A program made the translations under genes and the position numbers. DNA of 64,000 nucleotides, from NCBI GenBank assembly GCA_015233115.1, contig JADFYJ010000006.1, forward strand, positions 595 through 64,594, written 5' to 3'. Under the pieces are notes generated by a model that worked only from the letters and a program-made list of their open reading frames with translations, did no database searches and was not told where the DNA came from. The DNA comes from Candidatus Omnitrophota bacterium (GTDB lineage Bacteria; Omnitrophota; Gorgyraeia; Zapsychrales; Zapsychraceae). Positions 203-63,044 of the stretch are shown here, piece by piece (position 1 is the first letter of the stretch; the number at the start of each line of letters is the position of its first letter).

Positions 203-213
203 TATAAATTTTA

Positions 214-259
214 TTGGTTTTTGGTTAATGGTTTTTGGTTAATGGTTTTTGGGTGTTGG
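214..259. repeat. Family-C block (GGTTAATGGTTTTTG tandem)
   Basis: ttggtttttggttaatggtttttggttaatggtttttgggtgttgg. Confidence 0.75.
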
Positions 260-335
260 AAATAGAAACCAAGCTTTTTTTAAAAAACAAAAACTATCAA
301 CCATGAAATATAATTTTTTGAAACCAATTTTTTCT

Positions 336-370
336 AAAAACCATAAACCATCAACTAACAACCATAAAAT
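336..370. repeat. Family-C block (reverse: AACCATAAACCATCAACTAACAACCATAAA)
   Basis: Imperfect inverted partner of the block at 214..259. Confidence 0.7.
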
Positions 371-393
371 ATAATTTTTAAAGGGTAATTATC

Positions 394-2127
394 ATGGGCT
401 ACGAGAAAAGAATTTTTATTTGTGATACGGACGGCGGAAATATTAAACCTTTTGAAGACGCGTTAAACGCCAATCTCCGGGCAGAAGGCTTGGTGGAAAA
501 GGTGCAGATCGTGCGGCTGGCAGATGCGGGCATATACCGCAAAGGCGTTATGGTTAAAGTCACCCCGGAAAATATCGTTTATATCGATGTCAAGATGGAC
601 GACATTAAAAAGATCGTGGATTCAACTGTCAAAATGGGACAGGCCGCGCCCGATATCGCGCAAAAGCCGCCGGAAAAACAGCTTAAAATTGTTTTACGCA
701 ATTGTGGAAATGTTGATCCTGAACGCATTGAAGATTATGTGGCGTTAGACGGGTATAAAGCTCTGAGTAAAGTCTTAGAATCAATGAATCCGGACCAGGT
801 CATTGATGAAATGAAAAAGAGCGGATTACGCGGACGCGGCGGCGGAGGATATCCGACCGGATTAAAATGGAGTTTTGCCCGCAAAGTCCAGGATGACCAG
901 AAATTTATTATTTGTAACGGGGATGAAGGCGATCCCGGTGCTTACATGGACCGCAGTGTTTTGGAAGGTGACCCGCATTCCGTGTTGGAAGGGATGACAA
1001 TCGGTGGTTATGCCATTGGCGCGTCTAAAGGATTTTTGTATATCCGCGCGGAATATCCGCTGGCTGTGGCACGCGTTGAAAAAGCGATTGAGCAGGCGAG
1101 AGCGTCCGGATTTTTAGGGAAAAATATTTTCGGGTCAGGTTTTGACTTTGACTTGGAAGTGCGTTTAGGCGCAGGGGCGTTTGTGTGCGGGGAAGAAACC
1201 GCATTGATCGCGTCTGTCGAAGGAAAACGCGGCTGTCCCCGTCCCCGTCCACCGTTTCCGGCTGTCAAAGGCTTGTGGAATAAGCCGACGATCATCAACA
1301 ATGTGGAAACATTAGCGAATATTCCTTATATCTTTTTAAATGGAGCGGAAAATTTCGCGAAAATCGGTACGGAATCCTCACGCGGGACCAAAGTTTTTGC
1401 CGTGACCGGTAAAGTCAAACATTCGGGCTTAGTCGAAGTTCCTATGGGGACGACGCTGCGTGAAATCGTGTTTGATATCGGCGGTGGAATTTTGGATGAC
1501 AAAAAAATTAAGGCTGTACAGACCGGCGGTCCGTCGGGCGGGGTTATCCCGGAGAATTTTCTGGATACGCCTGTTGATTATGATAATTTAGGCAAGCTCG
1601 GCTCCATCATGGGATCAGGCGGTATGATCGTCATGGATGAAGGCGATTGTGTGGTGGATATTTCCAAGTTTTATCTGGGCTTTTGCGTGGATGAATCATG
1701 CGGAAAATGTGCGCCTTGCCGTATCGGCGGGAAGCAGATGCTGACGATATTGGAGAAAATATCTCAGGGTAAAGGAGAATTATCAGACCTGGATAATTTA
1801 CGCAAAATATCTTTTGCCATGAAAAAAGCCTCTTTGTGCGGATTGGGCCAAACCGCTTCGAATCCGGTGCTGTCAACGCTGCGTTATTTCGAATTGGATT
1901 ATAAACAGCATGTGGTGGATAAACGCTGTTTTCAAGGTAAATGCAAAGACTTGTTCGTATTTACGATCATTCAGGATAAATGTAAAAAATGCAGTTTGTG
2001 TCAGCGGAATTGTCCGGTCGACGCGATCAGCGGCAGCCGTGAAGAAGGATTTTTAATCGACCAGAAAAAATGCACGCGTTGTGGCCGGTGTTTTGAAGCG
2101 TGTAAGTTTGATGCAATTTCGAGATAA
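394..2127 (+). CDS. NuoF-like NADH-binding/FMN subunit of [FeFe] hydrogenase (HydB/HndC-type) with C-terminal 2x[4Fe-4S] ferredoxin domain
   Basis: The NuoF signature GLRGRGGGGYPTGLKW is present. Two CxxCxxCxxxCP motifs occur at the C-terminus (CKKCSLCQRNCP, CTRCGRCFEACK). The gene lies between the NuoE-like and HydA genes. Confidence 0.85.
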   Translation: MGYEKRIFICDTDGGNIKPFEDALNANLRAEGLVEKVQIVRLADAGIYRKGVMVKVTPENIVYIDVKMDDIKKIVDSTVKMGQAAPDIAQKPPEKQLKIVLRNCGNVDPERIEDYVALDGYKALSKVLESMNPDQVIDEMKKSGLRGRGGGGYPTGLKWSFARKVQDDQKFIICNGDEGDPGAYMDRSVLEGDPHSVLEGMTIGGYAIGASKGFLYIRAEYPLAVARVEKAIEQARASGFLGKNIFGSGFDFDLEVRLGAGAFVCGEETALIASVEGKRGCPRPRPPFPAVKGLWNKPTIINNVETLANIPYIFLNGAENFAKIGTESSRGTKVFAVTGKVKHSGLVEVPMGTTLREIVFDIGGGILDDKKIKAVQTGGPSGGVIPENFLDTPVDYDNLGKLGSIMGSGGMIVMDEGDCVVDISKFYLGFCVDESCGKCAPCRIGGKQMLTILEKISQGKGELSDLDNLRKISFAMKKASLCGLGQTASNPVLSTLRYFELDYKQHVVDKRCFQGKCKDLFVFTIIQDKCKKCSLCQRNCPVDAISGSREEGFLIDQKKCTRCGRCFEACKFDAISR

Positions 2128-4093: not shown

Positions 4094-4233
4094 TTTGGCA
4101 ATTCACCAAGAAGGATGATATACTTTAGCTAAGAGATGTGAAAGGTAAACCACCCGTAAGGATGGGACACAAAGCTATAGGGCCCTGTACCAGAGGTAGA
4201 GGGTAGCCAGTTGCCGCGAGAAAAAAATTTGTG

Positions 4234-4453: not shown

Positions 4454-4840
4454 ATGAGAAGAGGACAAAAAGGTTTTACGCTGGTGGAAATCATGATCGT
4501 TGTGGCGATTATCGCGTTATTAGCCGCGATCGCGATTCCTAACTTGCTAAGAGCCAAAGTTTCGGCTAACGAAGCTTTAGCGCAAAGCACATTAAAAACA
4601 CTATCAACGTCTATTGAAACTTATACAACAGCGAATAACGGTCTTTATCCGAACGCTGAGAACTTGTTAACGGGTGCTACACCGCCATATTTGAATACGG
4701 CTTATTGCGGTCTAAGTCTTAGCGGTTACACCTATGCTTGTACTTTGGCTACCGGGGGTTACACGATTGTGGCGACTAATAATTCAACCAGCACAGGTAC
4801 CAGAACATTCACAGTTACAACAGGAGGCATTTTACGCTAA
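4454..4840 (+). CDS. pilA: Type IV major pilin (PilA-like), class III signal peptide
   Basis: N-terminus MRRGQKGFTLVEIMIVVAIIALLAAIAIP has the prepilin G|FTLVE cleavage/methylation motif. A C-terminal Cys pair forms a D-region-like loop (CGLSLSGYTYAC). The caaggagg RBS precedes the start. Confidence 0.9.
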   Translation: MRRGQKGFTLVEIMIVVAIIALLAAIAIPNLLRAKVSANEALAQSTLKTLSTSIETYTTANNGLYPNAENLLTGATPPYLNTAYCGLSLSGYTYACTLATGGYTIVATNNSTSTGTRTFTVTTGGILR

Positions 4841-4865
4841 TTGTGGTGATATAAAGTGAATTGGC

Positions 4866-4893
4866 GGGGGCTTAGCAATAAGCCCCTTTTTTT
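4866..4893 (+). terminator. Rho-independent terminator/attenuator after the major pilin gene
   Basis: Stem gggggctta/taagccccc followed by ttttttt. Confidence 0.75.
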
Positions 4894-4997
4894 ATAAATG
4901 AGCTCATCACTTAGAGAGCGAAGCGAACTAAGTGATTTGAGCGAATTTAGTTCCGTGCGAAGCTAGGAACTTCAACGCGGTCAAAATTGGAGGGGGG

Positions 4998-6174: not shown

Positions 6175-7914
6175 ATGAACAATAGTGCCATGATGCGACG
6201 GATGTTGAAACCGCTCCAAAATAAAAAAGGAGTGGCCATGATCTTCACATTTTACCTGATTACCGTACTGATTGTGTTTGTGAGCATCGTCGCGGTGCGG
6301 ACGTTGAATGAAGGCCTGATGGCGAAAAAGGAACGCGAGTCGACAAAAGCTTTTTATTACGCCGAGGCAGGAGCAAACGCGGCTTTGCAGCAGATAGAAC
6401 ATTTTATCAATACCGACCTTTACGCGAACGTTAACAGCGCGTTCAATCCTCAAACTAAAGCTACAGAGATTCAGGGCTACGCGTGGGCCAATAAACCTTT
6501 AGACTTCCTTTTTAATTGTGCGCTTTCGGGAGGAGTAAATGATTTTACATATAACGTGGATAAGACGCAATTATCGAATACCTTGGGGACAACAGTATTG
6601 GGAGATGGCGCGTATACCTATACCGTGACGATCACTCCCAAAAGCACGCCGGTCTCTGTATCCTCTTCTTCCTGGAATTTTTTCTATAATTATAAAATTG
6701 TCGTGTGGGGTATTCGCGGGGCCGTAAATAAAATTATGTCCGCGACGGGTGATTTTCAAGTGACCGTACAAAAAGATAATATCGCGAAATTCGCGGTGAG
6801 CGTTCAGCAACAAAAACTCAAAGATAATACAACGCTAGTATGGTTCAATAATAACACTTATTTTAGAGGGCCGGTCCAATCCAATAATCAGCTCAATTTT
6901 TCCGGAACACCGGAATTTGACGGTGCGGTCACGCAGACTAATAATCTGGCCAATTTTTATAATGGCGGAAATATTAAACAATTGGCCAGCGACCACAATT
7001 CAACTTTGGATGTCCCGGTGTTTAATCAGTCGTTTTCCCGTAACTATCCCGCGGTGAGTCTGGATTCATCCACTGCGCAGACTGATCTTTCAAGTCAAGC
7101 TCAGGGGGCGGTTGCTCTTTCCGGGAACGGAGTTTTTATTCCGAATGATGGCACCAGAGTAACCGGAGGAATATTTACCCGGGGAGATACAACCATCCAG
7201 ATGTCCGTTGATTCGAATGGATATGCGAATTATACCGTAGGCGCTAATGGTACAACTAAAACGATTATTGTGGATCAAGACCATTTGACGACAACGGTCA
7301 AACAGGCAGGGTTAGCGGATGTGGTTTATGTCGGCTTACCTGATGGGGCGAGTAATCAAGGAACTATTATTTATACGGATGGAAAAATAACTAGTTTAAA
7401 GGGGACAGTACAACAAGATACGCAAGTGACTGTTTCCAGTGATGCGGATATTGTGATTACCGATAATATTGTGTATTCGGATTTCACCTCTCAAGTCGGA
7501 AACCCCGCTGATGACGATTATATTCCTCCGTCGGCGGAAGGCGCGAAGAATTTGTTAGGAATATTATCGTGGAACGGTGATGTGCGCGTCGCGGTTCCGT
7601 CAAGCGCGCATAGTGATTTGACCATTGATGGTGTAGTCGTGGCACAAAAAGGGGTATTCCAGGTTGACAGTTACAATTCTGGTTCTCCCCGCGGGACTGT
7701 GACGTTATTAGGAGGATCTATCACCCAAAACTATGGCGCGTTTGGGACGTTTGACGGGTCGACTCAAAGTATGCTGACTGGTTACGCGAGAAATTTTGTT
7801 TATGATTCGCGGACCGGAGCCGGACAATCTCCGCCATATTTTCCGCCTTTAAAAGCGTCAGTGGCTTTTTCCACGGATATAACAGATAAAGTGATTTGGA
7901 GGGAGGGCTTTTAG
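6175..7914 (+). CDS. PilX-N-domain pilus-associated protein (large minor pilin / tip-associated factor)
   Basis: N-terminus KGVAMIFTFYLITVLIVFVSIVAVRTLNEGLMAKKERESTKAFYYAEAGANAAL resembles the PilX N-terminal domain. The remainder is Thr/Asn/Gly-rich and likely beta-rich. Confidence 0.6.
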   Translation: MNNSAMMRRMLKPLQNKKGVAMIFTFYLITVLIVFVSIVAVRTLNEGLMAKKERESTKAFYYAEAGANAALQQIEHFINTDLYANVNSAFNPQTKATEIQGYAWANKPLDFLFNCALSGGVNDFTYNVDKTQLSNTLGTTVLGDGAYTYTVTITPKSTPVSVSSSSWNFFYNYKIVVWGIRGAVNKIMSATGDFQVTVQKDNIAKFAVSVQQQKLKDNTTLVWFNNNTYFRGPVQSNNQLNFSGTPEFDGAVTQTNNLANFYNGGNIKQLASDHNSTLDVPVFNQSFSRNYPAVSLDSSTAQTDLSSQAQGAVALSGNGVFIPNDGTRVTGGIFTRGDTTIQMSVDSNGYANYTVGANGTTKTIIVDQDHLTTTVKQAGLADVVYVGLPDGASNQGTIIYTDGKITSLKGTVQQDTQVTVSSDADIVITDNIVYSDFTSQVGNPADDDYIPPSAEGAKNLLGILSWNGDVRVAVPSSAHSDLTIDGVVVAQKGVFQVDSYNSGSPRGTVTLLGGSITQNYGAFGTFDGSTQSMLTGYARNFVYDSRTGAGQSPPYFPPLKASVAFSTDITDKVIWREGF

Positions 7915-7915
7915 A

Positions 7916-8221
7916 ATGAAATCGAATAAAGCGACAGTGATGATTGTAGCCGGAGCGATTATTTTCATGCTATTACTCGTCAATCATTGGGTATCCCGAC
8001 AAATGAAAGACGCGTTAAATGTGCCGAGAGTTGGCCATAGCATCCCTGTTCAAAAATCTTCAGAACCAAAGGCTGACCCAAAGTTTGATGATGCGGCGCC
8101 AGTATCTTCTGAAGCGCAACCAAAGGTTTTACCCAGAAAACATGGGCATATAAAACGGCCGTTTCCAGTGGTCAGTGAAGAAAAAAGTGATGCACCGCGG
8201 GGCCCGATTTTGGTGCAATGA
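7916..8221 (+). CDS. Hypothetical small membrane protein (one N-terminal TM segment, Pro-rich tail)
   Basis: ORF with a hydrophobic N-terminal segment (VMIVAGAIIFMLLLV). It is translationally coupled to the upstream gene, and no family was recognised. Confidence 0.4.
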   Translation: MKSNKATVMIVAGAIIFMLLLVNHWVSRQMKDALNVPRVGHSIPVQKSSEPKADPKFDDAAPVSSEAQPKVLPRKHGHIKRPFPVVSEEKSDAPRGPILVQ

Positions 8222-8318
8222 CAAAACGCGTGACAGTGTAACAATGTGACAATGAAAAAGCGGTTGGTTGGAAAGGCGCATTACTTTTTTAAATAATAAA
8301 TTAAATTTGAATTAAATA

Positions 8319-14172: not shown

Positions 14173-14231
14173 AAAAGAAAAGCGATTGATGGGAAAAAAA
14201 TCTACTTTGTTTACTCTGTACTTTTTTCCTC

Positions 14232-14260
14232 TTGACGAAAAGGGATCTATTGCTTATACT
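14232..14260 (+). promoter_or_regulatory. sigma70-like promoter for rplU
   Basis: TTGACG, a 17-nt spacer, then TATACT. It lies between an inverted pair of family-A repeats. Confidence 0.5.
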
Positions 14261-14326
14261 TGGCAAACGATAAATTACGGCAAGACTAATTAGGTTCAGA
14301 GATTTTCCTATATTTTTTGTTTTTTT

Positions 14327-14366
14327 CTCTGTTACTTTGTTACTCGGTTACTTTGTCACTTAACAA
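14327..14366. repeat. Family-A block, reverse orientation (CTCTGTTACTTTGTTACTCGGTTACTTTGTCAC)
   Basis: Reverse complement of the block at 14138. It lies in the rplU 5' leader. Confidence 0.8.
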
Positions 14367-14696: not shown

Positions 14697-14767
14697 AATT
14701 TATTTTACCGGTTGATGGTTGATAGTTTTTGATTTTTGGAAGAAGCGATAGCTTCCTAAATCTTAAA

Positions 14768-14810
14768 AATTCCGGTTGGCCTTCATGGGGAAAACCGGAA
14801 TTTCTTTTTA
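14768..14810 (+). terminator. Rho-independent terminator after rplU
   Basis: Stem aattccggtt/aaccggaatt followed by a T-rich run. Confidence 0.65.
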
Positions 14811-16751: not shown

Positions 16752-16756
16752 AACGT

Positions 16757-16782
16757 CGTAGGGGCGATCTCCTGATCGCCCG
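16757..16782. repeat. Family-D 26-nt palindromic element (cgtaggggcgatctcctgatcgcccg)
   Basis: It is itself a hairpin (GGGCGATC tcct GATCGCCC). A T-run lies 9 nt downstream, so it may terminate proB transcription. Confidence 0.8.
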
Positions 16783-16827
16783 CAACAATCGTTTTTAAAT
16801 AAAAATCAAAAAGCAATAATTTTGTCA

Positions 16828-16853
16828 CGGGCGATCAGGAGATCGCCCCTACG
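16828..16853. repeat. Family-D element, exact reverse complement of 16757..16782
   Basis: cgggcgatcaggagatcgcccctacg. Confidence 0.85.
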
Positions 16854-16878
16854 AACAGTGTAAATGTAGGAACATAAT

Positions 16879-18129: not shown

Positions 18130-18701
18130 ACAAGATCGGCATATTAGGCGGCACTTTTAATCCTGTTCACGTCGGGCATTTGGCTGTGGCGGATTACGCG
18201 ATTGAAAAGCTGGGATTAAATAAAGTCATTTTTGTCCCTTCCGCTCTGCCGCCGCATAAATCCGCTAAAGGCGTGATTGAGGCTCATCACCGTTATGAAA
18301 TGCTCAAGATCGCGGCTGGAGAAAATCCGAAATTTGAAGTCTGTGATTTTGAGATCAAACAAGGCGGAAAATCCTACAGTGTTGACACAGTTAAATATCT
18401 GATTAGCCAATACCCGGCTAAAACAAAATTTTATTTTATTATCGGTGAAGATAATTACGCGGGGTTGGCCAAATGGAGAAATATCGACGAGCTTATGGCG
18501 CTCACCGAATTTGTGGTGGTGAGCCGGCCAGAATCCGCGCCTTGCCGGAGTGACGGAAAAGCGCGTTTTTTAAAAATGCCGGGCTTGGAGGTTTCGTCCA
18601 CATATATCAGAAAAAACATTGCGCAACGGACCAGTATTCGGTATCTTATACCTGCGGAAGTTTTGCAATATATTAAGGCGCATAAACTATATTTGTCGTA
18701 G
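18126..18701 (+). CDS. nadD: Nicotinate-nucleotide adenylyltransferase
   Basis: GILGGTFNPVHVGH (HxGH) nucleotidyltransferase motif. A GTG start overlaps the proA stop. Confidence 0.85.
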   Translation: MNKIGILGGTFNPVHVGHLAVADYAIEKLGLNKVIFVPSALPPHKSAKGVIEAHHRYEMLKIAAGENPKFEVCDFEIKQGGKSYSVDTVKYLISQYPAKTKFYFIIGEDNYAGLAKWRNIDELMALTEFVVVSRPESAPCRSDGKARFLKMPGLEVSSTYIRKNIAQRTSIRYLIPAEVLQYIKAHKLYLS

Positions 18702-21205: not shown

Positions 21206-24200
21206 ATGTCTCAATTTCGTTTTAGTTTTTGGACTAAATTGGTGTGTTCTTTTTTGTCAGTGATTTTTGCCTTGCAATGCGTTTATCCTTTGCAAGCCGC
21301 GAAAGCTGATGTCTTAACCCTTCCGGCTCCTGGATCAATGGTCAGCATGAGTCCGGCATTCGTTCCAACTTTATTGCGCGGCATGACTGTTCATCCTGAT
21401 AATCCGCTTCGCTTTGATTTTATTTTAGATAAGGGCGAAGCGGAGTCACAAGGTCACAAAGACACAAGGTCACAAAGGGAAATAAGAATTGAAACGGAAA
21501 AGTTGGTAAATTATTTCCTCGCGTCTATGACAGTTCCAGAAAAAGATTTATGGGTCAATCTTTCCCCGAACGAACCAAACCGGATTGTTTCCAAAGATTT
21601 AGGCAAAACTGAAATGGGCCGGGATTTGCTGGCTCAAGATTATATCCTAAAACAATTAACGGCTTCTTTAATGCAGCCGGATGGAGAAGCAGGCAGGGAA
21701 TTGTGGTCCAGAATTTATGAACGGGCTAAAAAAGAATTAAACACGACAGATATCCCTTTAGACACTTTTAACAAAGTCTGGATCCTGCCCGAAAGCGCGA
21801 CCATTTACGAACACAACAATACCGTCTATATCACAGACGCGAAATTGAAGGTTATGACAGATAGTGATTATAATACTAGTTTTAAACAAACTGTCATTCC
21901 CGCGAAAGCGGGAATCCAATTAACTTCTTTAATTAAAAAAATTATCATCCCCGAAATCGAAAAAGAAGTGAACACCGGCAAAAATTTTGCCCAGCTTCGC
22001 CAGATTTATTATTCACTCATTCTCGCCAAATGGTACAAAGACGTAGTCCGAAACAGTCTGCTTGAGAAAGTGTATATTGGAAAAAATAAAGTCGACGGCC
22101 TTGATTTAAACCCAAACCAAACACTTTCTCCGGCCAATATTTACAAACAATACATGTCCGCCTTCAAACAAGGCGTTTACAACAAAATTAAAGAAGAATA
22201 CGACCCCCAAACTCAGCAAATCATAGCCCGAAAATATTTTTCCGGCGGGTTTCAAGACACGGCCATGACCATTAAACAAGCCGACGCAGCGCAGATTACT
22301 CAGGCGCAAGAAGGCGAACAAAGTAGTGTGGCCGTCACATTAGACAACATTTCTGTAAGTCAAGAACCAGAAATAACTGAAAAAAATTTAAATGATTCTG
22401 AACGGATTATTTATAATAAAATTCAATTTCCTGTTTCTCCGGCACTTATCAGAGAAATTAAGAAGAGTAAGAAATTAGCCGAGACATTTTGTCTAATAAC
22501 TGGTATGGAGAAAAATGATTCGTTGCTGGCACAATTTTTGTTGTTTCATTTGTTTATCCGTATGTCAAAAGCAGAAGAGGGAGCTGTTGCAAATGAATTT
22601 TATTCATCGGCAGGTTTATTAAATCCATCTTATCAAGAAAGGCTGCCGGACGAATTAAGAAAAGATCCTCTTAAAGTGTTAAATGATTTTTTAACTGAAA
22701 CTGGGAGGGAAGAACTGCGTGCTAAGAATTTTGAAAATTGGGATGACTTCAAAGATTATTTGCTGAAAACTGATCAAGAGCCGTTATGGGAAATTTTTCA
22801 AGAATGGGTTGCTGCGCTGCCATATCGGAAATTTTTTGAGTTAGCGCATATTGAAAAAGCAGCGCAGTTTTTAAGTACCCGTCCGGATATGGTCCCTGAA
22901 GGTTTCCGGGAATCATTTGAAGTATTTCAAGACCGTGGAAAACCTGCGCCGATCGAAGAAATCGTGTCTGTTGTTGAAGATAATTATGGTCCTTTGGAAA
23001 ATTTATGTGAGAAGCGGCAGGATATCAAGGAAGGAGATAATCCTTATTTAAAACGGCTTAATGTGGGTACTGTCGCCGATACATTTTTGGTGACTTTAAA
23101 GAATGGTCAGCAGGAAGCTTGGAAAATCGTGGCTCCAAGCAAAGAAGCAAAGATTCGTCAAGGTCTTGAAACGCTGCGGGAAGTTATGGGTGAACTCGAA
23201 AAAAACAAAGTTTTTTTTGCCGGCAATGAAACTATCCGGTTATCCCCTGTAAGATTTTTTAAGGAATTTGAAAAAGCAGTGCTCAGAGAACTGGATATGA
23301 ATACTGAAGCAAAGCAGGCACGCGATATGATCCCTCATTTTCCAAAAGGGTTTGCTAAACCTGAAATTAGAGAAAGTAAAAAGCAGATCCTTCGCATGGG
23401 TTTTATCAATGGAACTAAAATAACTTTAGTTACGGACACTGAAATTAGAAAACGCCTAGCGAAAAAGATATTGCCTTTAATTGGTTTACAGGCGTTAGGA
23501 GATGAAATTTTTCATGCGGATCCCCACCCGGGAAATATTTTTTATATTGAAGAAACCGGTGAGATTGTTCTTTTTGATTTTGGTCAGGTGGGGTATTTGA
23601 CGAAGTCCGTGCGAAGGGATTTGGTAAATTTGGCGGTTCAAATTTTACAGCATAGAGAGCAGCGCGGTTTACATCAGGTCATGTACCATGCTATAGGGAA
23701 AATTTTACAATCCAAAATTGCTGCGAAAATGGCAAGATGGGGTTTATTTAATTATTATTGGTATCAAGAGCAAAAAAATCAGAAGAGACCCCAATCTAGC
23801 CCGGATTCAATCCGAAAAACAGAAAATCGACAGAAAGATCACGAATCTGAAATATCATTTGAATCCACCTTGGACTTTGATGATGTGCTTAAAAAAATGG
23901 TTGAAACGACACCCCTTAATATTGATGAAATTTTGGATTTTCTTGAGTTAAAAGGGATACAGAATACAGGATATAACCGTGACAGTTTACACGCAAAAAT
24001 ATCTGAAATCCTCACATCAAAAAGTATTCAAGGGTGGAAAGAGCAACAGCCTTATATTATGGTTGACCGCCTTGTGTATGAAGCAGAAGCTCTTGGGTTG
24101 ATTATTCAGACGCCATATTCTTCCATCATATCGCATATAATGACGTTTGCTCATAAATATGCAGATATGGACGACAATATTGAAGCGGATGAGATCGGAT

Positions 24201-25441
24201 TTAAAACCGAAGTCTCTTCAATTCTGAGATTCCGAAGGGAAGGCGAAAGCATTTTTCCTGTTGTACACCGCATCTTTTTAGCCGCAGACCGGTTTGGATA
24301 TCCGATATTGTCATCTGCCTCAATGCTGATCAAATCCTTACTTTTAGCCGAAGGCGTCCAACGGACGCTGAAACAAAATTTGGAAGGCAGGAATGATTCA
24401 AACGATTCAGCCATGACCATCAAACACGCCGACGCCGCGCAGATAACCCGTGCACAAGTAGGCGAACAAAGTCGAGGCAAAGTTACATTGTCTGATCATG
24501 CGATGCAACAAATTATTTTACCGGATTACGCTGGCAATTTAGACCCATTAGCCTTAGGTGAAAAGCCTAGGAAAGTGATTGAATTAATGCGGAAGGGGCT
24601 CAATGTTCCGAAATTTTTTGTCATAAAATCTAATGGGACGGGAAAACTGGAAATTACAGATGAATTAAGGCGGGTTTTTGATTCTTTTAAAAAACCGGTT
24701 ATTGTCCGCAGTGCGCATCCTATGGAAGGCGGCGAACATCCCTTTCCTGGTATATTTAACAGTTACTCAGCAGTCAGTTATTTGGCTTTCGAAGATATTC
24801 CTGATGGTATACGGCCTGATGCCGAGGGCAAATGGGATAAAGATCCATTAAGCGTTGATTGGGCATATGAAGATATGGTGGAAACAGCATCACCAGATTG
24901 GAATGATAAATTAGATAAATATTTGAAAGCCAATGCTATTAAAGATTTTGATCCAAAAGCAATGGATGCGGTTTTGATGGAACAAGTTGACGTGGAAGTG
25001 TTTGGTATGTTTTTTACAGAAAGCCAAATCCATCCTAATAAAATTGAGATTCGTTATATTATCCCAGACACAAATGATGGCGGAATTATATTGTTTGATA
25101 AAACAACTCAATCACTCGAAGAAAATTCTTTACCACAACGTATCCAGGAAGTTCTTACGGAATTTGGAAAAACTGCGCAAAAGATTCATGACATATATGG
25201 TTTTCAACAAATTGAGTTAGCGTCTTCTAAAATTGATAAAAAGGTTTATGTTTTTCAATCCAGAAATTTTCCTATTGGCGATCCAAACAACGTGGCTCGT
25301 TATCCTGAATATCAAACCATCATGACGCCTAATGCGGTACTTGGTTATGGTGATTATAATCTGCCGGTTATAGTTTTAGATGGGTTAGATAGTGTCACAA
25401 AATATAAGGAAGATCCAAAATATCGAGCCTTGAGTGAATAA
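21206..25441 (+). CDS. Giant multidomain protein: signal peptide/anchor + unknown N-domain + UbiB/ABC1-type atypical kinase domain + PPDK_N/PEP-utilising-enzyme ATP-grasp-like domain; internal repeats
   Basis: N-terminus MSQFRFSFWTKLVCSFLSVIFALQCVYPLQAAKA is signal-like. The ABC1/UbiB hallmarks LSTRPDMVP, AWKIVAP (Lys), HADPHPGNIFY and DFG are present. At the C-terminus, ...NVPKFFVIKSNG... and KPVIVRSAHPMEGGEHPFPGIFNSYSAV resemble PPDK_N VAVRSSAxxEDxxxxSFAGQ. The motif SAMTIK[QH]ADAAQIT appears twice. Confidence 0.6.
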   Translation: MSQFRFSFWTKLVCSFLSVIFALQCVYPLQAAKADVLTLPAPGSMVSMSPAFVPTLLRGMTVHPDNPLRFDFILDKGEAESQGHKDTRSQREIRIETEKLVNYFLASMTVPEKDLWVNLSPNEPNRIVSKDLGKTEMGRDLLAQDYILKQLTASLMQPDGEAGRELWSRIYERAKKELNTTDIPLDTFNKVWILPESATIYEHNNTVYITDAKLKVMTDSDYNTSFKQTVIPAKAGIQLTSLIKKIIIPEIEKEVNTGKNFAQLRQIYYSLILAKWYKDVVRNSLLEKVYIGKNKVDGLDLNPNQTLSPANIYKQYMSAFKQGVYNKIKEEYDPQTQQIIARKYFSGGFQDTAMTIKQADAAQITQAQEGEQSSVAVTLDNISVSQEPEITEKNLNDSERIIYNKIQFPVSPALIREIKKSKKLAETFCLITGMEKNDSLLAQFLLFHLFIRMSKAEEGAVANEFYSSAGLLNPSYQERLPDELRKDPLKVLNDFLTETGREELRAKNFENWDDFKDYLLKTDQEPLWEIFQEWVAALPYRKFFELAHIEKAAQFLSTRPDMVPEGFRESFEVFQDRGKPAPIEEIVSVVEDNYGPLENLCEKRQDIKEGDNPYLKRLNVGTVADTFLVTLKNGQQEAWKIVAPSKEAKIRQGLETLREVMGELEKNKVFFAGNETIRLSPVRFFKEFEKAVLRELDMNTEAKQARDMIPHFPKGFAKPEIRESKKQILRMGFINGTKITLVTDTEIRKRLAKKILPLIGLQALGDEIFHADPHPGNIFYIEETGEIVLFDFGQVGYLTKSVRRDLVNLAVQILQHREQRGLHQVMYHAIGKILQSKIAAKMARWGLFNYYWYQEQKNQKRPQSSPDSIRKTENRQKDHESEISFESTLDFDDVLKKMVETTPLNIDEILDFLELKGIQNTGYNRDSLHAKISEILTSKSIQGWKEQQPYIMVDRLVYEAEALGLIIQTPYSSIISHIMTFAHKYADMDDNIEADEIGFKTEVSSILRFRREGESIFPVVHRIFLAADRFGYPILSSASMLIKSLLLAEGVQRTLKQNLEGRNDSNDSAMTIKHADAAQITRAQVGEQSRGKVTLSDHAMQQIILPDYAGNLDPLALGEKPRKVIELMRKGLNVPKFFVIKSNGTGKLEITDELRRVFDSFKKPVIVRSAHPMEGGEHPFPGIFNSYSAVSYLAFEDIPDGIRPDAEGKWDKDPLSVDWAYEDMVETASPDWNDKLDKYLKANAIKDFDPKAMDAVLMEQVDVEVFGMFFTESQIHPNKIEIRYIIPDTNDGGIILFDKTTQSLEENSLPQRIQEVLTEFGKTAQKIHDIYGFQQIELASSKIDKKVYVFQSRNFPIGDPNNVARYPEYQTIMTPNAVLGYGDYNLPVIVLDGLDSVTKYKEDPKYRALSE

Positions 25442-34623: not shown

Positions 34624-35028
34624 ATGTCAGAAGTAAAGGATCTTTCTCCGAAATTAGCAGAACTTGTTAAATCTATAGAAGGTTTAACGGCTCTTGAGCT
34701 TTCCGATCTCGTGAAGGCTTTAGAAGACAAATTTGGTATTAAGGCCGCGGCACCGATGCCTGCAGGTTTCATGATGGGCGCAGGTCCGGCCGCAGCAGCA
34801 CCCGTAGCTGAAGAAAAAACGGAATTCAATGTGGTATTAGTTGAAGGCGGCGCCAACAAAATCGCTGTCATTAAAGAAGTCCGTACCATCACCAGTTTAG
34901 GCCTCAAGGAAGCCAAAGATTTAGTTGAAGGCGCTCCGAAGGTTGTAAAAGAATCTGTCGCTAAAGCTGAAGCTGAAGAAATCAAAAAGAAACTTGAAGC
35001 TGCCGGCGCCAAAGTCGAATTAAAGTAA
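34624..35028 (+). CDS. rplL: 50S ribosomal protein L7/L12
   Basis: The start chosen is MSEVKD. An Ala/Pro-rich hinge is followed by a C-terminal ...[17 protein letters not shown]...[18 protein letters not shown]. Confidence 0.95.
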
Positions 35029-35030
35029 AT

Positions 35031-35068
35031 TTGATGGTTGTTGGTTGATGGTTGTTAGTTTTGGTTAA
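35031..35068. repeat. Family-C block (forward)
   Basis: ttgatggttgttggttgatggttgttagttttggttaa, located after the rplL stop. Confidence 0.75.
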
Positions 35069-35100
35069 AGCATTGGAGTTGTTTAAAATAAGCGCTTTTT

Positions 35101-35130
35101 CCAAAAACTATAAACTTCCAACTAAAACCC
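35101..35130. repeat. Family-C block (reverse)
   Basis: ccaaaaactataaacttccaactaaaaccc, located before rpoB. Confidence 0.65.
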
Positions 35131-35198
35131 CCGATATTATGTTTCAGGTGATGTTAATTTAATCAAACCAATACCGAACGGTTAAGATCGCCATATAT

Positions 35199-38100
35199 AT
35201 GAAAAATTTCAAAATACGCGACTTTAGTAAGCATAAAGACACGTTTGAGCTCCCGTCTTTACTGGATATTCAAACTGTATCATATGCGCATTTTTTGCAA
35301 AGGGAAATAGACCCTGACAAGCGCAAAGATCATGGCTTAGAAGAAGTCTTTCGTGAAGTTTTTCCTTTAGAGAGTTATGACGGGCAAATACGCTTGGAAT
35401 ATTTAAACTACTCTTTAGGACGGGAAAAATATAATGCTACAGAATGCAAAAGCCGCGGGTTGAATTACGCCGCACCTTTGAAGGTAAAGCTGCGTTTGAT
35501 TACGCCGGTGGATATCAAAGAGCAGGAAGTTTACTTCGGTGACTTTCCCTTAATGACGGATACCGGAACGTTTATCATTAATGGTGATGAACGGGTGGTG
35601 GTTTCCCAGATTCAGCGCCCGCCTGGTGCTTCTTTTGAAGAAGAATTGCATCCGACTGGAAAAAGTATTTACCATGGCAGGATCATTCCGTCTCGCGGAG
35701 CTTGGTTCGAGGTTAAGTATGATTTGAACAACATACTGTTAGCTTATATTGACCGCCGTCGTAATTTTCCGGCAACGCAGATTTTGCGTATTATGGGTCT
35801 TTCGACCGAAGAAGAAGTACGTAAGATGTTCGGAGATGATTTTGATAAACTCGCACCGACTTTTGAAAAGGATCACACTAAATCAAAAGACGAAGCGTTA
35901 TTAGATTTTTACCGTAAAATGCGTCCTACTGAGCCGGCAACGGTGGAAGTGGCAGAATCATTATTTTATCGTTTATTCTATGATCCGAAACGTTATGATT
36001 TGAGCAAAGTCGGTCGCCATATCATCAACCGTAAACTCGGCATGGATGTATTACTCGAAAATCGTGTTTTAGACATTGCCACCCTCGTCGAAGTTATGCG
36101 CTATTTAATGCGTTTGCGCGAAGGGGTCGGCGAGACAGATGATATCGACCATTTAGGCAACCGCCGTATTAAAACTGTCGGTGAATTAGTGCAAAATCAG
36201 GTGCGTATCGGTTTGGCTCGTCTGGAACGTTCCATTAAAGAACGTCTGGTGGTCATGACCAGTTTTGAAAATTTAACCGCACACCATTTGATTAACTCCC
36301 GTTTATTTTCAAACCAGATTCAAGATTTTTTCTCTCGTAGTCAATTATCTCAATTTATGGATCAGGTTAACCCGTTATCCGAAATGACGCACAAACGCCG
36401 TTTGAGCGCTTTAGGGCCGGGTGGTCTTTCCCGTGAACGCGCAGGGTTTGAAGTACGCGACGTCCATCCAACTCATTATGGCCGGGTTTGTCCGATTGAG
36501 ACGCCTGAAGGTCCAAATATTGGTTTAATTTCATCGCTGACAAATTGCGCCCGTGTAAATGAACTGGGATTTATTGAGACGCCTTACCGCAAGGTTGAAG
36601 ACGGTAAGGTGACAAATAAAACATCGTATTTCACCGCTGATAAAGATCAGGGCGAATATATTGCTCCGGCGAGTACACCGCTGGAAGAAGACGGAACATT
36701 TAAAGATAAAATTATTACTTGCCGTTATAAAACTGATTTTCCTAAAATAGCGCCTAAAGATGTGGCTTTGATGGATGTTTCTCCTTATCAGGTCGTATCT
36801 GTGGCTACGTCCATGATCCCGTTTTTGGAACATGACGACGCAAACCGCGCGTTAATGGGCTCTAACATGCAGCGCCAGGCTGTCCCTTTACTTCAACCGC
36901 AGGTGCCGTTGGTTGGTACCGGCATTGAAGCGAAAGTGGCGAAAGATTCCGGCGTAGTTGTGGTTGCCAAAGAAGCTGGTATCGTCACGAAAGTGGATGC
37001 CAAAGAAATTGTTATTAATGAAACGGTATACCCGCTCATTTCTTTCCAGAGAACCAACGCCAATACCTGTATTAATCAGCGCTCCTTGGTCAATGTGGGT
37101 GATAAAGTTAAAGAAGGACAAGTTATTGCCGACGGTGTTTCGACCAAAGACGGAAAATTGGCTTTAGGCCGCAACGTTTTGGTCGCGTTCATGCCCTGGC
37201 GTGGATATAACTTCGAAGATGCGATTTTATTAAATGAAAAATTAGTCAAGGAAGACGCGTTTACTTCAATCCATATTGAACGTTTTGAAGTCGAATGCCG
37301 GGAAACCCGTTTGGGGAATGAAGAAATTACCCGCGATATTTCCAATGTCGGCGAAGAAGCTTTAGCAAATTTGGATGAGACAGGTATTGTCCGCATCGGT
37401 GCTGAAGTGAAGCCGGGAAGTATTCTGGTTGGAAAAGTTACGCCGAAAAGCGAAAAAGAACTTTCTCCAGAAGAGCGTTTAATTCGCGCGATTTTCGGTG
37501 AAAAAGCTGATGATGTCCGTGATACATCACTCACCCTGCCGCCTGGTGTGGAAGGTGTGATTGTTAATATTGAAGTGTTCCAGCGCAATGAACGCGGCCG
37601 TAAATCCAAAGACGACAAAAAACGCGATGGAGAAGCGGTTGAAAAAGTCAAAGCGTATTATGTGCAGGAACGTTTATTTATTGAAGACGAAAAAAATAGA
37701 AAATTATGCGAGATGTTAGGAATTGACGCGAAAAAGCTGGCAAAGATGGATTTGCGCAAGACCGATCATCCCGAAGTGAATGAATTGCTGGAATTTTACC
37801 AGGATAAAATGCAGGAATTGGAACGCGAAGAAGAGCAGGAAGTGGAACGCGTCCGTAAAGGCGATGAACTTCCTTCCGGCGTTTTGAAAAAAGTTGTAGT
37901 GCATGTGGCGACCAAACGGAAGATCTCCGAAGGGGATAAGATGGCCGGACGCCATGGTAACAAAGGTATTGTGTCTCGTATCCTTCCGAGTGAAGATATG
38001 CCGTTTTTAGCAGATGGGACAGCGGTCGATGTCGTGTTAAATCCGCTAGGTGTTCCTTCTCGTATGAACGTGGGACAGCTTTTGGAAACCCATTTAGGGT

Positions 38101-45904: not shown

Positions 45905-46095
45905 AAAAAGCGGTTGGTGAAAAGCGAATGGTGAAAGCGTTGGCGTATAAAAAGTGATTAGGTTTTAAAAAATATATTATTTGATTAAAATTAAAGTTTG
46001 GTTTTTTTTGTTTATGTTTGGTAATTATTATTCGATTTGTTGTTTTGTTCTTTGGTAAAATAATTTTTTTGTTGTTAGTTATTTGTTATTTTTTT

Positions 46096-54117: not shown

Positions 54118-54513
54118 ATGTCATTAAGTGATCCGATTAGTAATTTTTTAACAAATGTCCGAAACGCCATCAAAGTCCGTAAAGAAACGGTTGATGTTCC
54201 TGCGTCAAAATTAGTGGGAAAAATCCTTGAAATATTCAAGGCGGATGGCTACATCGAAGATTTCCGTTTGATGAAGGATAATGTGCAGGGCACATACAAG
54301 ATTTATTTGAAATATCAGGGAAAAGCTTCCGCCATTACTGGGTTGAAGCGTATTTCAAAACCAGGTTTAAGAGTTTATGTTCAACGAGACGAAATTCCAA
54401 AAGTATTGAACGGTTTAGGTACGGCAGTCATTTCAACGTCCAAAGGCGTGGTGACCAACCGTGAAGCTAAAAAGTTAAGTGCCGGCGGAGAAGTCTTATG
54501 TTACATTTGGTAG
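54118..54513 (+). CDS. rpsH: 30S ribosomal protein S8
   Basis: MSLSDPISNFLTNVRNA. Confidence 0.95.
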   Translation: MSLSDPISNFLTNVRNAIKVRKETVDVPASKLVGKILEIFKADGYIEDFRLMKDNVQGTYKIYLKYQGKASAITGLKRISKPGLRVYVQRDEIPKVLNGLGTAVISTSKGVVTNREAKKLSAGGEVLCYIW

Positions 54514-54610
54514 GCCGTTCGCGGGAGCTCACGGCACTACTTCGGACATTTCGTCCTCGGTCGGCCGTTCGCAGGAGCTCACGGCACTACTTCGGACATT
54601 GCGTCCTCGG
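54513..54610. repeat. Direct tandem repeat, 2 x 48 nt (period 50) between rpsH and rplF
   Basis: ggccgttcgc[g/a]ggagctcacggcactacttcggacatt[t/g]cgtcctcgg x2. It begins at the last base of the rpsH stop codon. Confidence 0.9.
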
Positions 54611-62474: not shown

Positions 62475-63044
62475 ATGAAACACGGTCTATCTGGTAATAA
62501 GTTAAATAGGCAGCAAAGTCATAGAAAAGCCACGATGCGCGATATCGCTAAAGCGACGATATTGTGCCAACGCATCTGTACCACTAAAGCTAAGGCCAAA
62601 GAAGCCCGTAAATTGGTTGAGCAATTAATTACCATGGGTAAAAAAGGTACATTAGCGCACAAGCGTCAGGCTTTTGCGGTTTTGCAAGATCATGCTTTAG
62701 TTAGCAGTCTTTTTGGAACTATAGCTCCTTTATTTGCCAAACGTGCAGGCGGTTATACGCGAATCATTCCTTGGGTTAAACGCCGGGGAGATAACGCGGA
62801 AATGGTATTTCTTGAATTGACTGAAAAACGCGTCGAAGAAAAGAAAGAACCTAAAACAGCTGTCAAGAAATCCGAAGCAGTCGCAGCGCCTAAAAAAACT
62901 GAAGAGAAGAAAACGGTTGAAAAGAAAACGGCGGAAAAGAAAGCCGTTGAAAAGAAAACCGCGGACACGAAAGTGGCTGACAAAAAGACTTCAGAGAAAA
63001 AAGGCGGCGTTATGAAGAGGATGTTTGGAAAACGCGGCGAATAA
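62475..63044 (+). CDS. rplQ: 50S ribosomal protein L17 with Lys-rich repetitive C-terminal extension
   Basis: MKHGLSGNKLNRQQSHRKA... core. The tail consists of KKT(A/V)EKK repeats. Confidence 0.9.
   Translation: MKHGLSGNKLNRQQSHRKATMRDIAKATILCQRICTTKAKAKEARKLVEQLITMGKKGTLAHKRQAFAVLQDHALVSSLFGTIAPLFAKRAGGYTRIIPWVKRRGDNAEMVFLELTEKRVEEKKEPKTAVKKSEAVAAPKKTEEKKTVEKKTAEKKAVEKKTADTKVADKKTSEKKGGVMKRMFGKRGE

Follow-up and report, generated by a model that had tools for sequence, protein, structure and literature searches.

We analysed a single 64-kb window of one Candidatus Omnitrophota genome (the window being the whole stretch of DNA considered here), in which every gene lies on the + strand, and we describe two intergenic elements of one repeat type. 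The first, site 1, occupies the spacer between hydC, which encodes a small thioredoxin-like [FeFe]-hydrogenase subunit (stop codon at 200-202, +), and the gene for HydB, a NuoF-like subunit (394-2127, +); the second, site 2, occupies the spacer between rplL (stop codon at 35026-35028, +) and rpoB (start at 35199, +). The two spacers are 191 nt and 170 nt long, respectively. Each element consists of two tandem heptanucleotide arrays in inverted orientation, first (TGGTTNN)n and then its complement, a type to which we refer as family C. GT-rich and AC-rich arms had been proposed at both of these operon-internal junctions in an earlier reading made from the letters alone (the sequence-only reading), and repeat finding, inverted-repeat search, duplex energies and fold prediction bear them out, as follows.

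The whole element at site 1 spans 203..379 (+), as delimited by its fold and by orthologous junctions, and is a quasi-palindrome of about 170 nt. Its left arm (211..259, +) is built of TGGTTNN heptamers with a 14-nt super-period, TGGTTTT/TGGTTAA. Tandem Repeats Finder (TRF) resolves 211-252 as a repeat of period 14 (TTAATGGTTTTTGG, 3.0 copies, 96% matches) or, alternatively, of period 7 (5.6 copies), and 338-368 as AAACCAT (period 7, 4.4 copies); an inverted-repeat search recovers the arms as 218-250 and 336-368 (33 nt each, 79% complementary, with 85 nt between them). The outer right arm (332..375, +), a G-free run of AAACCAT heptamers, has its partner at 208-254 (duplex -32.2 kcal/mol). Between the two lies an inner AC-rich arm (278..306, +; AAAAAACAAAAACTATCAACCATG), overlooked by the sequence-only reading, that pairs with the 3' portion of the left arm (235-262, duplex -18.6 kcal/mol), indicating that the site-1 spacer is a nearly continuous hairpin of about 170 nt rather than a bracket around an unrelated interior. 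The base of this hairpin is at 208, 5 nt past the hydC stop codon, and its apex (263..280, +) consists of AGAAACCAAGCTT followed by T7 and includes an AAGCTT palindrome. The right arm ends about 20 nt upstream of the hydB start; the Shine-Dalgarno-like sequence and hydB start codon (380..396, +; AAAGGGTAATTATCATG) are outside the hairpin. The predicted fold of the sense RNA is a long imperfect hairpin with a minimum free energy of -40.0 kcal/mol (z = -2.74 relative to dinucleotide shuffles).

At site 2 the left arm (35031..35067, +), composed of TGGTTGT and TGGTTGA heptamers, starts 2 nt past the rplL stop codon, and TRF reports for 35031-35066 a period of 7 (5.3 copies) and a period of 14 (2.1 copies, 93%). 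The right arm (35101..35134, +; CCAAAAACTATAAACTTCCAACTAAAACC) is an AC-rich complement, clearly more degenerate than the one at site 1, and ends 64 nt upstream of the rpoB start. The left arm forms a duplex with 35095-35134 of -27.2 kcal/mol in the sense strand versus -18.7 kcal/mol in the antisense strand, and the predicted stem (35031-35134) comprises about 30 pairs broken by bulges. The spacer as a whole also folds as a long imperfect hairpin, with -40.6 kcal/mol in sense versus -29.6 kcal/mol in antisense (z = -2.67 versus -1.03, the sense value being relative to dinucleotide shuffles). The apex (35068..35100, +; AAAGCATTGGAGTTGTTTAAAATAAGCGCTTTTT) carries an AGCGCT palindrome and T5. The sequence-only reading had pointed to this short palindrome and T-run (AAGCGCTT) between the arms; both are present, but the palindrome is of 4 bp without a loop and does not make a terminator.

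Sites 1 and 2 are the sole places in the 64 kb with at least four TGGTT within 40 nt. In pairing strength, 9 of 9,050 windows equal the true partner of the site-1 left arm, and 57 of 9,023 equal that of the site-2 left arm. Nowhere in the 64 kb does the site-2 left arm find a better partner than the site-1 right arm (-36.8 kcal/mol), so the two sites do form one family. The core of the unit, TGGTT, is kept in the arms, with variable positions (NN) occupied by TT, AA, GT or GA, and at both sites the GT-rich arm comes first and the AC-rich arm second. A third, shorter hairpin of similar kind lies at about 14707-14775 (+; CCGGTTGATGGTTGATAGTTTTTGATTTTTGG ... CCTAAATCTTAAAAATT), directly past a stop codon and followed downstream by a canonical terminator and by a bracket of another repeat family (family A, described below). 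The three copies (about 170, 105 and 70 nt) have in common a centre of the form GG-AA(A/G)TAG ... GC-TTTTT-(CC)AAAAAC. This centre, the shared arm type and the cross-site pairing, together with junctions that resemble insertions and a possible weak flanking duplication around site 1 (judged by eye), would suit a transposable element of the miniature inverted-repeat kind, in which the arms would be the terminal inverted repeats that a transposase recognises, with family C carried into both junctions by transposition. We consider this unlikely. Within the same 64 kb the copies differ in length and interior, and only their low-complexity parts align (56% mean column identity); the arms are arrays of variable copy number rather than defined termini; no clear target-site duplication is seen at the element ends; in families A and B the arms are kept while the interiors are unrelated; and arrays of related design in Xanthomonas have no association with mobile elements (Rehm et al. 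2015; PMC4692102).

Comparison with other Omnitrophota places the elements in time. For hydC-hydB we used three relatives (HydB 68-69% identical, upstream small subunit 53-55% identical), and in all three the hydC stop codon is separated from the hydB ATG by 1-2 nt (AAAGGTGAATTAAAATG), versus the 191 nt of the window. By eye, positions 380-396 of the window are similar to the junction of the relatives, implying that roughly 203-379 is extra DNA, which coincides with the hairpin. The following hydB-hydA spacer is likewise 24-40 nt in relatives versus 225 nt in the window, where it carries a bracket of family B. For rplL-rpoB the relatives were three loci (L081, L082 and L083; RplL 76-82% identical), whose spacers of 110, 65 and 49 nt contain no TGGTT or AACCA arrays. 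Because orthologous junctions lack the element, it is a lineage-specific insertion or expansion and not a conserved regulatory site, and by the refuting condition that the sequence-only reading set for itself, absence from related genomes, its interpretation fails at both junctions. On this comparison of junctions the family-C elements are recent, the relatives used being at most 82% identical to the RplL of the window. Another candidate for the closest RplL (P0002/L084) was rejected, since the organism is unrelated and of high GC and the C-terminal domain is duplicated, and the best RpoB match among those listed in a scan of genome contigs is 57% identical, at a locus (L001) without brackets.

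Absence from the orthologous junctions is also what would be expected if the elements were neutral or selfish by-products, that is, slippage-prone arrays and their fold-back copies tolerated by replication and repair, with no selected role for the hairpin and with a placement beside stop and start codons that merely reflects very short native spacers. The variation of unit sequences among loci and genomes speaks for such an origin, as do a density of arrays in the window about four times that in the relatives or in a 1.5-Mb sample of diverse bacteria, and the behaviour of the Xanthomonas arrays, which vary in copy number, are used as variable-number tandem repeat markers and have had no function found. 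Against it, variation is concentrated at certain positions of the unit while the core is retained, arm length is alike across families (about 4-6 units), and the element is fixed in essential, once tightly coupled junctions of a compact genome. We regard this neutral origin as a serious rival, though less likely than the explanation that we favour, and we return to it where the polarity of the arms is described.

Scans of the + strand at sites 1 and 2 found no match to a sigma-70-like promoter and none to an intrinsic terminator; specifically, the scan of 34900-35400 gave no terminator-like site on the + strand at rplL-rpoB, and the site-1 apex gave no terminator call. Rfam 15 covariance models produced no match at the gathering threshold and only chance-level miRNA and intron hits (E about 0.5-0.9). 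These results bear on an analogy drawn by the sequence-only reading, namely that site 2 corresponds to the E. coli rplL-rpoB spacer, in which an intergenic attenuator and an RNase III site were reportedly described by Barry, Squires and Squires in 1980. The two have in common the gene junction and structured spacer RNA (predicted, at site 2), the long predicted stem could be cut by RNase III, and there is a T-run at the apex. Site 2 differs in having no terminator-like hairpin with a U-run, no sequence relationship to the E. coli site and no conservation within Omnitrophota, where the spacers of three relatives are without it, and elements of the same type sit at junctions without known attenuation and, elsewhere, between convergent genes. 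A conserved operon-internal regulatory site equivalent to that of E. coli is therefore very improbable, and the family-C element is not an attenuator.

The explanation that we favour, with confidence a little above an even chance, is that family C is a slippage-grown inverted heptamer-array hairpin, co-transcribed with its neighbours and acting, if at all, as an RNA stem at a cistron boundary. The element would have arisen by insertion or by growth in situ in a formerly tight operon junction, possibly through replication slippage of 7-nt units together with copying or fold-back of the opposite arm. Because the spacers lack promoters and terminators and the operons (hydCBA and rplJL-rpoBC) are conserved, the element should be co-transcribed, and would be carried inside the polycistronic mRNA, in which its GU-rich and AC-rich arms are predicted to form an imperfect stem of about 35-50 bp, looping out nearly the whole spacer. 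This stem may stand as a cistron-boundary hairpin in place of the former translational coupling, as a putative target of RNase III and/or a barrier to 3'-exonucleases in the manner of REP, ERIC and Correia hairpins, and could thereby uncouple the fates of the upstream and downstream cistrons; in principle, the modelled double-stranded stems at both sites are long enough to be RNase III substrates. In annotation and operon models both sites are best treated as lineage-specific hairpin insertions, of which the one at hydC-hydB abolishes the translational coupling across 1-2 nt that is ancestral there.

Several observations weigh against this explanation. Transcription through the element and any cleavage of it are assumed. 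Sense and antisense folds at site 1 are equal. Over 22 brackets of known gene orientation, mismatches compatible with G-U pairing number 38 in sense versus 29 in antisense, a difference that is not significant (p = 0.33), and the commonest mismatch is a transversion (79). The free positions of the unit are not complementary between arms, leaving a mismatch every 7 nt, and since these variable positions are uncompensated, base pairing as such may not be the conserved feature; the TGGTT core could instead reflect recognition of a motif or the history of the array. Taken together, the lack of G-U asymmetry and the uncompensated free positions mean that no selection on pairing is visible outside the shared core, a pattern that favours the neutral origin, and absence at orthologous sites fits no selected function as well. 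An apparent signal of sense-RNA selection from arm duplexes (sense better in 7 of 10) was rejected, since composition and a mutational bias from C to T confound the comparison.

The missing strand-specific RNA signal would also be expected of an element that acts as DNA, its arrays being bound by a protein, or folding into a cruciform or G-quadruplex, with a local effect on transcription or replication. A conserved pentamer core that recurs every 7 nt alongside free positions does look like a series of binding sites, site 1 has a weakly favourable fold as DNA (z = -1.76), and the Xanthomonas and Nostoc units form G-quadruplexes in vitro (PMC4692102). Three points make action at the DNA level quite unlikely: the many unrelated unit families within and between genomes would call for a large number of specific proteins, units spaced by 7 bp are out of phase with the helix, and, because family C has GG tracts only (no G3) and G tracts are lacking from families A and B, the G-quadruplex is excluded as a common denominator. 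The same architecture built of units unable to form G-quadruplexes weakens the G-quadruplex explanation more generally.

We return to the favoured cistron-boundary stem with the wider distribution of such brackets, beginning with the window itself. The sequence-only reading had presented the TGGTT arms as a further repeat family with a bracket design shared by others, and this holds: of the 20 spacers of at least 50 nt, about 10 are enclosed between an array and its reverse complement. By unit, three brackets belong to the 8-mer GAGTAACN (family A), three to the 7-mer GTATGTN (family B), two to three to TGGTTNN, and two to a GC-rich family with palindromic arms. Among arrays of period 6-9 with at least three copies, 10 of 22 have a reverse-complement partner within 400 nt, versus none in control segments 2 kb away.

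The inverted partners of family A bracket whole spacers at 14136-14181/14316-14361, 14823-14877/14923-14977 and 45870-45909/46092-46131, and at 8230-8254 a left arm occurs alone; the fusA-tuf spacer is one of those bracketed, and a near-consensus promoter (TTGACG-17-TATACT, at about 14230-14260) lies inside one family-A interior. Family B brackets hydB-hydA (2129-2158/2288-2317), the region upstream of a tRNA-synthetase-like gene (30350-30394/30567-30611) and rpsQ-rplN (52507-52540/52610-52643). At the first of these, hydA probably starts at ATG 2353 (AAGGAG at 2337) and not at the listed TTG 2276 inside the family-B right arm. In both families the arms are kept around unrelated interiors of 45-200 nt. 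The GC-rich inverted pairs (CGTAGGGGCGATCTCCTGATCGCCCG), at 16755-16788/16822-16854 and 18800-18823/18860-18882, differ in kind, each arm being itself a palindrome, and the architecture at 16755-16854 is REP/REPIN-like, unlike that of the heptamer families.

A separate box, AAAAGCGRTTGRTG, directly follows family-A and family-B left arms (2159, 8256, 14178, 18782, 30385, 45906 and 45920, +). It has 19 matches (at most two mismatches) versus 3.4 expected, all on the + strand and in spacers; it has no complement near the right arms, and at 45906-45936 the box recurs in tandem with a 14-nt unit. Identity of this box with a family-C arm was considered and rejected: its GRTTGRTG half resembles the C unit, but the order of parts is reversed and there is no complement.

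Other repeats in the window are a 50-nt GC-rich direct repeat in the rpsH-rplF spacer (54509-54610; two copies, 94% identical), an 8-mer array at 21445-21477 (GTCACAAG, 3.9 copies) in the open reading frame (ORF) 21206-25441 of 1411 aa, either coding or near the N-terminus, and a 15-nt/30-nt tandem repeat at 62907-62973 within ORF 62475-63044. At 4134-4218 (+) lies a c-di-GMP-I riboswitch aptamer (RF01051; 58.7 bits versus a gathering score of 35), upstream of ORF 4454-4840 and followed by terminator-like hairpins.

Two of the relatives used for rplL-rpoB, L081 and L082, carry brackets of their own, at other junctions and with other units (GACACAA, GGTATACGG, AAATCAA and GGGTTAC). An inverted repeat at the end of rpsE in the window (56216-56235/56297-56316) has arms containing the 13-mer GGTGTCWGATCTC, for which 0.03 chance matches are expected in the window and which is found again in inverted-repeat arms at L081 5519-5641, a different locus in a different Omnitrophota genus. 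In a further relative (L205, 13529-13923) a near-perfect long inverted repeat of about 300 nt, not tandem, lies downstream of hydA.

Beyond Omnitrophota, we scanned metagenome sequence with the pattern (TGGTTNN)3TGGTT, which gave at least 89 arrays among the matches listed. Among those 89, 19 have a complementary array within 300 nt downstream versus one upstream, and the 19, again among the matches listed, represent at least 16 loci of 29-73% GC. In the paired loci the GT-rich arm starts 2-25 nt past a stop codon. Between co-directional genes (L105, L116, L129, L142 and L161) the partner arm adjoins the start codon that comes next; between convergent genes (L090, L100, L112, L114 and L149) it adjoins the stop codon of the facing gene. 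One of the latter loci, L114, also carries a GCGATCGC site, which we take to be the cyanobacterial HIP1 repeat. Very long heptamer or 8-mer arrays, with arms of up to about 150 nt and inverted arrays of the same length after them, occur between convergent or co-directional genes at L112 4327-4690, L104 3423-3629 and L139 6165-6500, and L112 holds three distinct paired families within 6 kb.

A metagenome-assembled genome of Acidobacteriota (L018), which came from an unbiased rpoB sample, contains at least six brackets of different heptamers, CGGGAGG, AGTCCAA, AGCTATC, CGTAAAA (at two junctions) and ATCGGGTG, placed in rplK-rplA, in rpoB-rpoC, after rpoC, in tuf-rpsJ and around tRNAs (4477-4556, 4800-4906, 6551-6661, 8067-8154, 14208-14334, 18622-18701 and 23171-23283).

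Where arms are strongly skewed between G and C, the G-rich arm comes first without exception; weakly skewed arms are not all so arranged. This strong and fixed polarity, like the 19 versus 1 count of TGGTT arrays among the matches listed, is difficult to reconcile with a purely neutral by-product. Avoidance of Rho was rejected as its cause, given the weakly skewed arms in relatives in which the A/C-rich arm comes first (GACACAA in L081, AAATCAA in L082), and a purine-first rule is broken by TGGTT itself.

These distributions raise, tentatively and with considerable doubt on our part, the proposition that inverted heptamer-array hairpins are a distinct cross-phylum class of cistron-boundary elements and not repeat debris; such hairpins occur in Omnitrophota and Acidobacteriota, in Xanthomonas and cyanobacteria, and in many uncultured lineages of 29-73% GC. 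Several interchangeable families per genome, arms of about 4-6 units, starts close to stop codons and fixed polarity, with the G-rich arm 5' and the C-rich arm 3' whichever the strand, could indicate a mechanism dedicated to generating them or a function shared at the RNA level, neither of which, to our knowledge, has been described for such hairpins. If the proposition were true, candidate roles would be the punctuation of polycistronic mRNA or a family-wide pairing of 3' and 5' untranslated arms. Units unable to form G-quadruplexes, several coexisting families, occurrence at ribosomal-protein and RNA-polymerase junctions in at least two further phyla and a near-invariant polarity make testable what was in 2015 a Xanthomonas oddity, and the predictions are RNA ends at the bases of the arms, dependence on RNase III and polymorphism in copy number.

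Known repeat systems share parts of this design, and we found no literature report of inverted heptamer-array hairpins in Omnitrophota. REP/BIME, ERIC and the Correia elements of Neisseria are co-transcribed inverted repeats that fold in mRNA and alter RNase III processing or protection from 3'-exonucleases. Each of those families has a sequence defined and conserved over its full length and an enzyme known or suspected to mobilise it, whereas the copies of family C share a simple-repeat core only and differ in interior and length; and unlike those of REP/BIME/REPIN, the arms of family C are not self-complementary. Heptamers are also reportedly known from cyanobacteria, as the STRR repeats of Mazel in 1990. 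In bacteria at large, heptamers are the most abundant class of long simple sequence repeat (SSR; units of 5-11 nt), for which polymerase slippage has been proposed (Mrazek 2007, as relayed in PMC4679880). Family C resembles the long SSRs, to the extent that they are portrayed there, in being over-represented intergenic heptamers of sporadic phylogenetic distribution for which slippage is proposed; long SSRs and STRR are direct arrays, and on that same second-hand account an inverted copy and the bracketing of a spacer lie outside the definition. TAACTGA repeats are direct arrays beside start codons in Beggiatoaceae, Cyanobacteria and Bacteroidetes, ribosomal-protein operons included, with units that contain stop codons and a suspected post-transcriptional role (MacGregor 2015; PMC4679880). 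Like family C they are heptamer arrays in spacers, a few nucleotides from coding sequence; they differ in being direct and upstream of starts, with one inverted case among 170 and no hairpin predicted.

The closest counterparts are the (GGGAATC)n arrays of Xanthomonas and the (GGGGAYT)n arrays of Nostoc, with a preference for four units, described by Rehm et al. (2015; PMC4692102). Xanthomonas genomes carry 70-75 convergent array pairs each, capable of forming stem-loops; the arrays are found no more than 50 bp downstream of a stop codon or upstream of an ORF, mostly between co-directional genes, vary in length among related species and are mostly transcribed, with no function found (PMC4692102). 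Family C agrees with this type in its intergenic tandem 7-mers (4.4-5.6 copies) with a conserved core and one or two free positions, in the nearby complementary array in convergent orientation with the G-rich strand first, and in left arms that start 5 and 2 nt past stop codons. It differs in its unit, TGGTTNN, which has no G3 tract, and in belonging to a genome that uses several unit families, an 8-mer included. The Xanthomonas arrays are also mostly kept between the same genes in two species, whereas family C is absent from relatives that are themselves much more distant. The G3 tracts are the focus of those authors and not a requirement of the architecture; the architecture is already on record in Xanthomonas and Nostoc, and family C adds to it a unit that is unable to form a G-quadruplex.

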